From Pseudomonadota bacterium (GTDB lineage Bacteria > Pseudomonadota > Gammaproteobacteria > UBA1113), in contig JAJYCX010000011.1 of NCBI GenBank assembly GCA_021778015.1, positions 6,053-70,052 on the forward strand: a stretch of DNA of 64,000 bases. Reading direction: 5' to 3'. The position numbers and the translations under genes are program-made. Numbering within the stretch: position 1 is the stretch's first letter; each line of letters opens with the position of its first letter. The notes under the pieces were generated by a model that worked only from the letters and a program-made list of their open reading frames with translations, did no database searches and was not told the origin of the DNA. Shown piece after piece: positions 29,467 through 32,655 of the stretch.

Positions 29467-32400
29467 CTATAATTGCGGACGTCTTTGTGATAGTTTCTGT
29501 GACGTGTCAGTTCCACTATAATTTTTTCTGTTTTCGTTTGGTTCTTCACTTGGGCCCGATTTTAATGGGTTCTTTGGTGGGGGAGAGAAATGAGTTATAG
29601 TAGTACTCAAATTACTTTGTTGTTTCAAAGAAAACTCCTCTAACTCAATTAATTCTAATATGAGAGTATGAATGTTTGCTGTGCTGATATAGGACTCCAG
29701 CATTTCTTGAGGGGTACTAAAATTTATTGAACCATCTTCGCATTCATGCATTGCTGGATTACGAATTTCATTCCTACATCTTACCAGAACTTTTATGGGC
29801 ATTCTAGAATTAGCATTATAAAGTCTAGGCAATAATTCACACAACCTATTAAAGCACTCAACAATGATGCACACTGAGGTCACGCAAGAGTAAATTTGGC
29901 AAAGATTTTTGGATAAATCAAAAAGATAATGATCATCTTTAAATGGCTTAAATGCTGATTTTAGACATGCTAATTCCGCATTCATTAACGCTAGATATAT
30001 TTCCGGCCGCCATTCTATAGTAGGAGTTTGTTCGATTATTTTATTTGCAATGCCATTTATATTCTCATGGTTGCAAATAATTTTTGCAAGTTCTAATAAG
30101 GATGTTTGTTTCTTTTTTTGTATGGGTGACGATGCCTCTTCTATTCCATCCCAGTGAATATCCATACAAAAATAATGCACAAGAGCGACCCTTAGTTTGG
30201 AGAATAAGTTGCGCGTGGATTTTTCTGTGTTATTTTTTATAAGCTCAAGAATTATTTCTTGAATGACTCTATAATAGATTGCGCGGATAATAAATTTTCC
30301 ATTATAGATTCGTTCGTCCTTATCCTCATATTGACGCAGAAGATGCTTTAGATGCGGATCAGTTTCTTTTTTTTGTTTTGCTGATGATGGAGCGCTTTTC
30401 TTTTCTTTCATCTTATCTTTAGCTCGTACCGTTTTCATTGCTCCGTCATCTAAAAAATGACTCATGTCAGGAGCTACTTCTACGCCAAGAGAAATGGGTT
30501 CTTTTTGTGCAGGAGGCTTCTTCACGCCTATAGTTGTGACTGTAGCATTGGTATGGACTAATGTCTCTGTTTTAACTTCTCTGGTATTACTATGAAGATT
30601 TTTGGTTACAACAGCAAGCGCTTTAGACGTATTTGAAGGTTTTTCACTTGCGTGCAATCCTTTTTTCTCTTGTCTATTGTGTTCTGAGCGCTTGGGCTTA
30701 TATTTTCTTTTACCATTAATTCTCTCAAGACTTATCTCTTCTTTACGTTCCTCCACCACCTTTTTACGCTCGAATTCTTCTGGGCTAACTCGTTTTTCAT
30801 TAAGAGTGGGTTGTATAGATGTTTTTTTTTGTTCTTCTTCCTTTAGCGTTTCAATCTTTTTAGATAACTGCGCACATTTCTTTTCACATACGGTATCGTC
30901 TAACAATACATCATAAGGGTAAGTGACAGTTATTATATCTCCATTTCCACTGTGCAATAAATTTGTCTTTTTTAATAAAATTATAAACGTTTTCATGGGT
31001 TCATAAGAAAGACAATAAGAAACTTTAATGGTGTATTTTTCTTGAGAAAAACTCACATCGCTCCACTGATAACCATTCGCTTTTACTTGCGCGGTTTCGA
31101 ATGCGCTCAATAATTTAGCATGGGAAATCGCTATCCTCTCAGAAATAAGAGCATGATCTTTGGTGTCAAATAGAGAAAATACTCGTGATAGAGCATCAAT
31201 CTTTTCTTCCCCTAAATTGAAAGTTATTGAATTTTCTTTAAAGAGAATTGCAATCCCAAAGTTTTCTTTTTTAAAAAGAATATATGCACTCAGACATTCC
31301 AATTGGGATCTATAATTAATTTTTACTTCATATATTGATTTTCTTTTTATTTTTTTTGCGGAAACTTTATACTGGGCTATTAAAGTCTTTATAATTTCAA
31401 TATGAGGAACATCCTTGTAAATTGCAGTTAAGCATTGAGTTATACATTTTTTAATTTTATTAATAATGGGGTCTTTTGCATTTTGTAATATTTCCAAAAC
31501 TTTAGCGTCATCAGTAAATCCCGCAAATTTTATAACAGTATCATCCATCACTGCATCGTAATCAAGTAGTATCTCTACAGCGAGTGCACGGTTGTGAGTG
31601 AGAATATGCCCCCTCTTTAATAATACTTTTAGGATGTCTTGTAGAAGCCTTGGATCTTCAAGGCTATATTCTAAATTAGATATATGAATATTTTCCCCTA
31701 GGAAATCACCTGTATAGACATTTCTATGGTCTGAGCTAATAACGGCATAATGATCTTCGTGAAGGTCTAGATAAATCGTGTTTGGGATTGCGGGTTTAAA
31801 CTTTCCATCTAAGGTGCGAATTATATAACCGTTAATAGGATCTAAGTAAATTCCGTCGGTCTTTCCTGGAGAATTTGACATTACATCAAAAACATATCCA
31901 CTAGTACCCAGAATAGCGCACAATAAAGGAGTAAGCTCTTTTTTTCTGGATTTGATGTTCGGGTCTGCTTTATGCTGTAGCAATACTTCCATAACTTCTA
32001 TCCATCCGTGATAGGCAGCAAGATGCAATGGAATATCACCTTCTTCATTGAACTCATTGATCTTGTTCTTTACTCTTTGATCCTCTAGTAATGCTCGCAT
32101 GGCATTGGGATAGTTGCCTTTAACAGCGCAATGCAAGACAAAATCATCAATATTTGCGCCGTGCTCAAGCAATGTCTTTGTGATTTCATAAAGGTCATTG
32201 GAAATCGCAATATGCAAAGAAGTTTCATTTTCTAATGTTTTGGCCTCGATATCTAAACCATTTTCTAACAACACTCTTATAGCCTCAACGTGACCATACC
32301 GAACAGCAAGGTGCAAGGCAGTGCCAATAATATTTTGAGCATGGAGAATTGTTTTATCTAGAGTAAGCAATAACTTCATAATATCAATTTGGCCGTGCGC

Positions 32401-32655
32401 TGCTGCAATATGAAATGGCGTCATGCGTTTATCGGCTTCAGCATAAATATCTGCACCACTTTCAAGCAAAACTCTTGCAATACCTGCGTGGCCAGCTAGT
32501 GCTGCGAGATGCAAAGGAGTACAGGCATTACTATTTCTAACATGAATATCTGCGCCTTTAGCGATCAACTCTTTCACAGCTTCGACATGTTCTTCTTTGA
32601 GAAGAACTACATACAGTAATTGTTGCGAAATATCTATAGCGGTTTCTTCTGGCAT
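29467..32655 (-). CDS. 1062-aa ankyrin-repeat protein with a basic linker and a helical C-terminal region carrying two R-x4-H motifs
   Basis: About 7-8 N-terminal ANK repeats (TPLHLAALAGHAGIARVLLESGADI, TPFHIAAAHGQIDIMKLLL, TALHLAVRYGHVEAIRVLLENGLDI and others). K/E-rich stretch with GKRKYKPKR. RVALVH at 30175-30192 and RNPAMH at 29746-29763. Confidence 0.85.
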   Translation of the reverse strand: MPEETAIDISQQLLYVVLLKEEHVEAVKELIAKGADIHVRNSNACTPLHLAALAGHAGIARVLLESGADIYAEADKRMTPFHIAAAHGQIDIMKLLLTLDKTILHAQNIIGTALHLAVRYGHVEAIRVLLENGLDIEAKTLENETSLHIAISNDLYEITKTLLEHGANIDDFVLHCAVKGNYPNAMRALLEDQRVKNKINEFNEEGDIPLHLAAYHGWIEVMEVLLQHKADPNIKSRKKELTPLLCAILGTSGYVFDVMSNSPGKTDGIYLDPINGYIIRTLDGKFKPAIPNTIYLDLHEDHYAVISSDHRNVYTGDFLGENIHISNLEYSLEDPRLLQDILKVLLKRGHILTHNRALAVEILLDYDAVMDDTVIKFAGFTDDAKVLEILQNAKDPIINKIKKCITQCLTAIYKDVPHIEIIKTLIAQYKVSAKKIKRKSIYEVKINYRSQLECLSAYILFKKENFGIAILFKENSITFNLGEEKIDALSRVFSLFDTKDHALISERIAISHAKLLSAFETAQVKANGYQWSDVSFSQEKYTIKVSYCLSYEPMKTFIILLKKTNLLHSGNGDIITVTYPYDVLLDDTVCEKKCAQLSKKIETLKEEEQKKTSIQPTLNEKRVSPEEFERKKVVEERKEEISLERINGKRKYKPKRSEHNRQEKKGLHASEKPSNTSKALAVVTKNLHSNTREVKTETLVHTNATVTTIGVKKPPAQKEPISLGVEVAPDMSHFLDDGAMKTVRAKDKMKEKKSAPSSAKQKKETDPHLKHLLRQYEDKDERIYNGKFIIRAIYYRVIQEIILELIKNNTEKSTRNLFSKLRVALVHYFCMDIHWDGIEEASSPIQKKKQTSLLELAKIICNHENINGIANKIIEQTPTIEWRPEIYLALMNAELACLKSAFKPFKDDHYLFDLSKNLCQIYSCVTSVCIIVECFNRLCELLPRLYNANSRMPIKVLVRCRNEIRNPAMHECEDGSINFSTPQEMLESYISTANIHTLILELIELEEFSLKQQSNLSTTITHFSPPPKNPLKSGPSEEPNENRKNYSGTDTSQKLSQRRPQL

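Follow-up and report, generated by a model that had tools for sequence, protein, structure and literature searches.

Introduction

RNase L of animals combines N-terminal ankyrin (ANK) repeats with a C-terminal ribonuclease (RNase) of the HEPN type. The HEPN census of 2013 lists fusions with ANK repeats solely for the eukaryotic proteins KEN, Cxorf38, and DZIP3 (PMC3710099), and a bacterial architecture that consists of ANK repeats and a double HEPN is not described in that census or in the literature that was searched. In this work, we describe an ANK gene (29467-32655, minus strand) in a 64-kb chromosomal stretch of an uncultured freshwater gammaproteobacterium. This whole stretch is referred to as the window. 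The C-terminal domain of the encoded ANK protein matches no curated family or solved structure. Its two conserved R-x4-H motifs and their predicted placement make it rather probable that the domain is an HEPN-type RNase.

The HEPN core is a four-helix up-down bundle that consists of two alpha-hairpins (Anantharaman et al. 2013, PMC3710099). The Rx4-6H motif runs from the end of helix-3 into the loop to helix-4, and the arginine is typically followed by a polar residue (N, D, or H). A conserved acidic residue is often present in helix-2, often as Ex3[KR]. Little is conserved outside the motif in HEPN families, which are very hard to detect by sequence (PMC3710099). Most HEPN enzymes need homodimerisation (PMC12165695). 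HepT (DUF86, PF01934; Shewanella SO_3166, PDB 5YEP) is a stand-alone homodimer that is accompanied by the MNT antitoxin. Cas13 carries two HEPN R-x4-H motifs in one polypeptide, where an intramolecular dimer with one active site is expected (PMC12165695). The Legionella Dot/Icm effector Lpg2073 carries a predicted HEPN domain (PMC11696984).

Conservation of two R-x4-H motifs in the C-terminal domain

The C-terminal domain of the ANK protein exhibits two R-x4-H motifs, RVALVH at aa 822-827 (motif 1) and RNPAMH at aa 965-970 (motif 2), that are spaced by 143 residues. Both had been pointed out at these sites in an earlier note on this DNA, with the caveat that a bare R-x4-H may occur by chance. 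That caution was justified. The whole protein has four R-x4-H motifs, where the other two are located at aa 77 and 507. In composition-preserving shuffles, at least four such motifs were obtained for the whole protein in 7% of trials and at least two within the last 262 aa in 3% of trials, so that the single sequence is only marginally above chance. The motif pair gains its significance from conservation in homologues and not from the single sequence.

HMMER was run in full against 1.84 billion cluster representatives and identified four relatives of the ANK protein. They are P0005 (1093 aa, 49% identity, full-length match), P0006 (895 aa, 28% identity, match from the middle region onward), P0007 (164 aa, 39% identity, a fragment that matches the middle region alone), and P0008 (952 aa, 28% identity, match to the linker and the C-terminal domain alone). 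All three full-length relatives (P0005, P0006, and P0008) have N-terminal ANK repeats. The C-terminal domain, which is common to these three relatives, defines the family and exhibits the highest conservation within the protein. The identity to P0005 per block is 54-70% across aa 751-1000. It is 20-52% in the linker and in the middle region apart from one block that reaches 62%. A word-indexed homologue search with aa 241-1062 returned only the query itself, and one with the domain alignment gave no match at all, the query included. The C-terminal domain was not found in scans of GTDB-representative genomes, JGI metagenomes, viral contigs, and plasmids. With four clusters among the representatives scanned, the family is very rare.

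Both R/H pairs are invariant in all four sequences that span the domain, which share 28-62% identity. Loss of these residues in homologues, which the earlier note had named as grounds for abandoning an HEPN reading, was therefore not observed. Motif 1 is LRVALVH in the window protein, LRIRLVH in P0005, and LRNALVH and LRNFLIH in the two distant homologues. Motif 2 is IRNPAMH in two sequences and VRNQAMH and IRNKAVH in the others, where R965, N966, A968, and H970 are invariant in all four. Of the nine histidines and 13 arginines of the domain, only two and three, respectively, are invariant. An invariant arginine precedes each invariant histidine by five residues, and the histidines of the motif pair are the sole invariant histidines of the domain. 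The RN...H pattern is present twice in each distant homologue (p<=5e-4 by shuffling).

Other invariant blocks of the domain are MNxELxxLKxAFxPF and CxxSxxxIxExxNxL. The long helix that precedes motif 2 carries an invariant glutamate (E933) and an invariant asparagine (N936). The ExxxR pattern is present in just two of the four sequences, and no invariant acidic residue was identified upstream of motif 1. The MNxELxxLKxAFxPF block lies at aa 891-905 (window ~29941-29985, minus strand). Glutamate carboxypeptidase II aligns to this block at chance level (E~0.4) with its C-terminal helical dimerisation domain (MMNDQLMFLERAF), which is probably meaningless.

Predicted structure and searches for HEPN similarity

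The structure of the C-terminal domain was predicted by AlphaFold2 with the four-sequence domain alignment, in which domain residue 1 corresponds to aa 765. The model is all-helical with a predicted local distance difference test (pLDDT) score of 74.8 and a predicted template modelling (pTM) score of 0.77. The single-sequence AlphaFold2 model of the last 302 aa (pLDDT 41) was unusable. The model exhibits helices at domain residues 3-13, 22-42, 48-66, 80-97, 103-112, 120-141, 145-149, 151-177, 179-182, 190-199, 203-206, 218-223, and 228-239. Motif 1 (domain 58-63) is located at the C-terminal end of helix 48-66, and a loop of 13 residues connects this helix to helix 80-97. Motif 2 (domain 201-206) is located at the junction past helix 190-199, which is followed by a loop and helices 218-239. 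Two longer helices precede each motif. The two halves of the domain are each about 100-120 aa, which is approximately the size of a minimal HEPN (e.g., HepT with 133 aa). The C-terminus had been described in the earlier note as helical over about 250 aa. The model is indeed all-helical over aa ~767-1003, but the helical part is shortened to about 235 aa because the last ~55 aa are of low confidence and are probably disordered.

These features are consistent with the published description of HEPN in several respects. The arginine of motif 2 is followed by asparagine in all four sequences and that of motif 1 in two of them. The R/H pairs, which include the only invariant histidines, are the most conserved feature of the domain. 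The motif context, the predicted placement at helix ends, and possibly E933 agree with the HEPN description, which favours an HEPN reading of the domain.

Several findings weigh against this reading. The residue after the arginine of motif 1 is valine in the window protein and isoleucine in P0005, neither of which is polar. The model confidence is low around motif 2 (pLDDT ~52-61). No significant profile similarity to an established HEPN family was obtained. No Pfam family was detected at E<=10 for the C-terminal 302 aa or the middle 520 aa, and nothing significant for HEPN was found in the C-terminal domain with NCBIfam, PADLOC, and PHROGs. Both motifs align to a HepT profile in hhalign, although over only 10-12 columns and with a probability of 3-5%. 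That profile was built from the sequence of PDB 6M6U/5YEP and 120 homologues and is narrow (>=62% identity to the seed). No HEPN is present among the Foldseek matches listed for the pLDDT-75 model against PDB and BFVD, where the best E-values (0.4 in PDB and 0.13 in BFVD) and the TM scores of about 0.2 are at noise level. The two halves of the domain have no similarity detectable by hhalign beyond an 8-residue motif, so a tandem duplication is not demonstrated. Two further points concern the proposed role rather than the fold. No type IV secretion system (T4SS) genes are present in the window or in the short related contigs, and no immunity gene is visible, so that an active RNase would need other self-protection.

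The best HEPN signal of all searches is a sub-threshold match to the Pfam HepT-like family PF01934 (E=0.05, 13.8 bits with a cutoff of 23.5). It was obtained for P0006 alone among the four sequences and spans motif 1. A PDB sequence search gave no significant match, and the top PDB profile match, with E=0.4 to the helical domain of glutamate carboxypeptidase II, is at chance level. No native HepT seed was found in a search of 1.4 Mb of loci. Formally, profile and structure searches without an HEPN-like bundle are the outcome that the earlier note had set as refuting its proposal, and none of the searches gave a significant match. They were low-powered because the query profile consists of four sequences (effective number of sequences ~2), all-alpha folds such as this one are difficult for Foldseek, and the comparison covered a single, narrow HEPN family profile. 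The evidence from the motifs and the predicted topology is specific and has no easy alternative explanation, which makes an HEPN-type RNase rather probable. The intramolecular HEPN pair that had been suggested in the earlier note fits the two invariant motifs in a domain of about 235 aa with halves of minimal HEPN size. No match to an HEPN profile or fold supports it, and the interpretation is thus partly supported.

Comparison with described systems

HepT is the sole family that gave any profile signal (E=0.05, and the motif-level hhalign alignment). The C-terminal domain shares with it the hRNxhhH context (GLRNIAVHDY in HepT), an aromatic residue two positions past the histidine of motif 1 (H-Y-F or H-S-F, compared with RX4HXY in HepT), and the all-alpha composition with halves of about 100-130 aa each. 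Unlike the stand-alone HepT, the ANK protein carries two motifs in one ANK-fused chain and has no significant similarity to HepT outside the motif. The HepT-MntA type VII toxin-antitoxin system was rejected as an identification, since the ANK protein is a 1062-aa fusion and the neighbouring genes orf351 and orf691 have no NTase domain.

The ANK protein resembles Cas13 in its two motifs in one polypeptide. In contrast to Cas13, it has no CRISPR RNA (crRNA)-binding lobes, and its motifs are 143 aa apart in a ~235-aa domain instead of hundreds of residues apart. Membership in Cas13 was rejected as the surroundings of the gene contain no repeat array and give no Rfam CRISPR match, and the protein has no similarity to Cas13 in sequence or structure.

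An RNase L-like layout had also been suggested in the earlier note. This holds as an analogy, with ANK repeats at the N-terminus and a putative HEPN at the C-terminus, where a repeat domain that binds a ligand or target would control an RNase. It does not extend further. Neither a protein-kinase nor a Ribonuc_2-5A (PF06479, KEN) match was detected by Pfam anywhere in aa 241-1062 at E<=10, and no PDB sequence match was obtained. The likeness to RNase L is therefore one of layout only and not of homology. A true homologue of RNase L or Ire1 (ANK, kinase, and KEN) that was acquired from a eukaryote by horizontal transfer would explain the same order of domains and the eukaryote-like character of the ANK repeats. 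Besides the missing kinase and KEN domains, KEN carries one motif per chain compared with two here, the ANK protein is bacterial, and neither RNase L nor Ire1 is among the top 50 Foldseek matches listed, none of which is significant. True RNase L/KEN homology is effectively refuted by these results and is considered very improbable.

The Dot/Icm ankyrin effectors of Legionella and Coxiella (AnkX, AnkH, and AnkY) are similar to the ANK protein in that eukaryote-like ANK repeats are combined with a lineage-specific C-terminal module. The genes are likewise low in GC, patchy, and rapidly evolving, with many per genome. The ANK protein has no equivalog-level match to a named effector of this kind. 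The NCBIfam matches to AnkY (68.8 bits), AnkH (47.1 bits), and AnkX (39.1 bits) are far under the equivalog cutoffs of 600-1400. These matches and that to MzaA, which is also far under its cutoff, cover the ANK repeats alone.

Proposed mechanism and alternative explanations

We propose, at about even odds, that the ANK protein is a modular conflict effector, namely a single-chain double-HEPN RNase that is probably aimed at a eukaryotic host. The N-terminal ANK-repeat platform would bind or select a protein target. The C-terminal helical domain of ~235 aa would be a pair of minimal HEPN units (a pseudo-dimer) that has not been described before. Each half of ~100-120 aa would provide one h-R-(N)-x-h-h-H motif at a helix end, and both R/H pairs would together make up a single composite site for endoribonuclease activity that needs no metal. 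This composite site is proposed by analogy with the intramolecular dimer of HEPN1 and HEPN2 in Cas13 and with the sites that HepT, RNase L, and Ire1 build as homodimers. The basic clusters of the linker may serve in nuclear localisation or RNA binding. The protein may be delivered into a eukaryotic (protist) host, where it would cut host RNA. The host-effector role is suggested by the low-GC island, the fast evolution, the many ANK/Sel1 proteins of the window, and a homologue that is located beside a gene with a faint leucine-rich repeat (LRR) mark. We infer all of the following: the HEPN fold, the RNase activity, the convergence of the two sites, the secretion, and the host target. In its boldest form, the proposal describes a non-CRISPR single-chain pseudo-dimeric HEPN RNase that a protist-associated bacterium injects into its eukaryotic host, with ANK repeats for docking on a host protein and basic clusters that direct it to the nucleus or to RNA. 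Such a protein would be a convergent counterpart of RNase L that is used for attack and would be the founder of a new HEPN family. This form is put forward as a tentative possibility.

The most serious competing explanation, though one that we favour less, is that the C-terminal domain is a new helical domain other than HEPN, either non-catalytic or with a different catalysis, by which an ANK effector would bind, e.g., a protein or membrane, and where the R-x4-H residues are kept for structure or binding. The negative profile and structure searches, the unrelated top PDB profile match, and the lack of detectable homology between the halves are all consistent with such a domain. The asparagine of motif 1 is also lost in two of the four aligned sequences, and R-x4-H alone is common. 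The two RN...H copies of the distant homologues, however, lie in the same hydrophobic register, which is improbable by chance as given above, and contain the only invariant histidines. Their placement at helix ends, the spacing of the halves, and the invariant upstream glutamate all fit HEPN, and HEPN families are notably difficult to detect by sequence (PMC3710099).

The same enzyme may alternatively serve inside the bacterium as a cytoplasmic anti-phage or abortive-infection protein, where a phage protein that is sensed by the ANK repeats would lead to release of the HEPN RNase, which would stop the translation of its own cell. We consider this unlikely, and somewhat less likely than a non-HEPN domain. 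Most bacterial HEPN proteins serve defence or toxin-antitoxin systems (PMC3710099), and a very fast-evolving gene in a variable, recently inserted island would suit such a function. The ANK region matches the ANK-containing defence-associated models MzaA and PDC-M72A. The product of the neighbouring orf351 has a sub-threshold Pfam match to CTD1 of the ABC-three-component (ABC-3C) conflict systems (E=0.008, 16 bits with a cutoff of 25). The C-terminal domain of one homologue has a weak PADLOC match to DzbB (E=0.007), for which no HEPN annotation was found. PADLOC, however, gave no model for the window protein or for the products of the other two island genes even at E<=10, the vicinity is free of phage and defence genes, and the four loci have no conserved partner gene in common. 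The other eukaryote-like ANK/Sel1 proteins that are scattered among housekeeping genes fit a host-associated lifestyle, and the basic clusters that resemble nuclear-localisation signals in the linkers of all homologues also argue for an effector rather than a defence protein.

If active, a double-HEPN RNase in the ANK protein would be one of the rare cases, Cas13 aside, in which a single chain holds two HEPN sites. Its compact scaffold of ~235 aa may be of interest for RNA-cleavage tools. HEPN RNA cleavage would also be added to the repertoire of ankyrin-type bacterial effectors, and the ANK-plus-HEPN logic of animal RNase L would have been reused independently. Confirmation would establish a new HEPN family and a new architecture, where HEPN RNases and ANK effectors are each already common themes. 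If the domain is not an RNase, it would still represent a family with an orphan fold whose two strikingly conserved R/H sites call for an explanation.

Architecture of the ANK protein

The coordinates of the ANK gene, the regions of its product, and the surrounding insertion are shown in Table 1. The open reading frame (ORF) is intact, and the Shine-Dalgarno sequence is located 7 nt 5' of the ATG. A 100%-identical protein is encoded in at least five independent assemblies (the NCBI metagenome-assembled genome (MAG) GCA_027457045.1, two ENA assemblies, and two Logan assemblies). The ANK gene is therefore real and not an assembly artefact. The 90%-identity cluster of the ANK protein also lists a 49-aa 'hypothetical protein [Bacillus toyonensis]' (WP_175282539.1). 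The sequence of that protein is unrelated to the ANK protein and is not encoded in the window, and its listing is probably a clustering or bookkeeping artefact.

Table 1. Features of the ANK gene, its product, and the insertion that carries it. Positions are those of the window.
Feature	Position	Strand	Description and basis
ORF of the ANK gene	29467..32655	-	complete, 1062 aa + stop
Shine-Dalgarno GAGG	32662..32665	-	sequence reading
Ankyrin-repeat region, aa ~15-250	31906..32613	-	Pfam Ank_2, Ank, Ank_4, Ank_3, Ank_5; E 1e-27 to 1e-39
Middle region A, aa 251-434	31354..31905	-	without Pfam or PDB match; common to the closest homologue P0005 only (alignment)
Middle region B, aa 435-610, conserved module	30826..31353	-	common to P0005, P0006, and fragment P0007 (HMMER, alignment)
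Linker, aa 611-766, K/E/S/T-rich, poorly conserved	30358..30825	-	composition, identity blocks
Basic cluster GKRKYKPKR, aa 648-656	30688..30714	-	sequence
C-terminal all-alpha domain, aa 767-1005, putative tandem HEPN	29641..30357	-	domain alignment, AlphaFold2, per-block identity
Motif 1, R822-x4-H827 (RVALVH)	30175..30192	-	C-terminal end of predicted helix aa 812-830
Motif 2, R965-N-x-A-x-H970 (RNPAMH)	29746..29763	-	helix end/loop junction
C-terminal tail, aa 1006-1062, S/P/E/K-rich	29470..29640	-	low model confidence; not conserved among homologues
Lineage-specific 6.9-kb insertion	25828..32747	.	between convergent dps and fhs; carries orf691, orf351, and the ANK gene
orf351	28401..29456	+	ORFan, convergent on the ANK gene, 10-bp gap
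orf691	26176..28251	+	ORFan, S/A-rich C-terminal tandem repeat

The Pfam ANK models cover aa ~19-238 with six scored repeats and capping repeats (best E 1.6e-39), which is consistent with the seven to eight repeats that had been counted in the earlier note. No family besides ankyrin repeats was detected by Pfam in the whole protein. The middle of about 400 aa that had been left without assignment likewise gave no Pfam or PDB match (aa 251-610), and the K/E-rich linker with its basic cluster was located as described. Lysine and glutamate account for 18% and 11% of the linker, respectively. The linker contains the lowest-identity blocks of the alignment and is probably disordered. Basic clusters of this kind are present in the linker of every homologue.

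Genomic setting of the ANK gene

The window carries the housekeeping genes nusA, infB, rbfA, truB, putA, dps, fhs, ddl, dapE, dapD, mfd, pnp, mrdA, and rodA. The closest GTDB-representative genomes are two freshwater gammaproteobacterial MAGs, whose FTHFS is 94% and 89% identical to that of the window. The next named relatives are Methylococcaceae, with an FTHFS of 78% identity.

The insertion that carries the ANK gene has a GC content of 0.35 compared with ~0.43 around it. The gap between fhs and dps is 6-8 bp in the sister MAGs (L006 and L007) compared with 6.9 kb in the window. A sediment contig (L086) has an ANK gene at the same place beside fhs, with insertion sequence (IS)-like helix-turn-helix (HTH) ORFs in between. 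Its FTHFS and Ddl are 93% identical to those of the window, whereas its ANK ortholog is only 47% identical. The dps-fhs spot therefore looks like an insertion hot spot. The ANK gene is recently acquired and fast-evolving. The locus exhibits a mode of gene origin in which a low-GC cassette is placed between convergent housekeeping genes and diverges far more than its neighbours.

The other two genes of the insertion, orf691 and orf351, have no wider relatives, which is also the case for the ANK gene. Both are absent at the sediment contig and beside the other homologues, so no conserved partner (antitoxin or immunity gene) is present across the four loci. A tandem repeat of 18/54 nt at 28017-28185 in orf691 encodes the C-terminal tract that is rich in S, A, G, and F (SSSAASSSSAAGFFSAA...). 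The length of this repeat varies between assemblies of the same population, which gives products of 691 and 673 aa. A 24-nt repeat is also located near the N-terminus of orf691 at 26224-26289.

A few minor features of the insertion were also observed. An imperfect 18-nt direct repeat, AGGAyTTwTTTTGAAAAA (16/18 identical), is located at 26105-26122 and 32685-32702, upstream of orf691 and the ANK gene, and roughly brackets the island. It could be an AT-rich chance match, a shared promoter, or an attachment remnant. A strong hairpin with 19-nt arms is located at 25839-25884, right past the dps stop codon, and a hairpin that resembles a bidirectional terminator is located at 28316-28338 between orf691 and orf351. 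At the locus of P0006 (L087, MAG GCA_021781705.1), the gene directly downstream (3104-4756, plus strand) encodes a 550-aa protein with just a faint LRR_TMOD-LMOD Pfam mark, which may be another eukaryote-like repeat protein.

Other repeat and ORFan genes in the window

The window carries four ANK proteins in total, and the other three are all located in low-GC patches. The genes at 47056-48813 and 48899-50761 (plus strand) are adjacent and encode paralogous ANK proteins of 585 and 620 aa that are 46% identical over their full length. Their C-terminal ~480 aa have no assigned family. The gene at 39847-43407 (plus strand) encodes a protein of 1186 aa that consists of a superfamily 1 (SF1) helicase (AAA_30, Schlafen-group-3-like helicase), Sel1 repeats, and C-terminal ANK repeats. 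This protein has weak PADLOC matches to GajB, AbiO, and DRT-associated helicases. It is an unusual eukaryote-like or defence-like fusion that adjoins another ORFan (38182-39564).

Large ORFs that have no Pfam family are located at 3775-7089 (plus strand, 1104 aa), 10242-11372 (plus strand, 376 aa), and 53301-55136 (minus strand, 611 aa). They may be more lineage-specific effector-like genes among housekeeping genes. The pattern seen here, with many eukaryote-like repeat proteins, low GC, patchiness, and rapid divergence, is typical of bacteria that are associated with amoebae or other protists (e.g., Legionella and Coxiella). Of the three large ORFs, at least those at 3775-7089 and 53301-55136 are located in low-GC patches (0.37).

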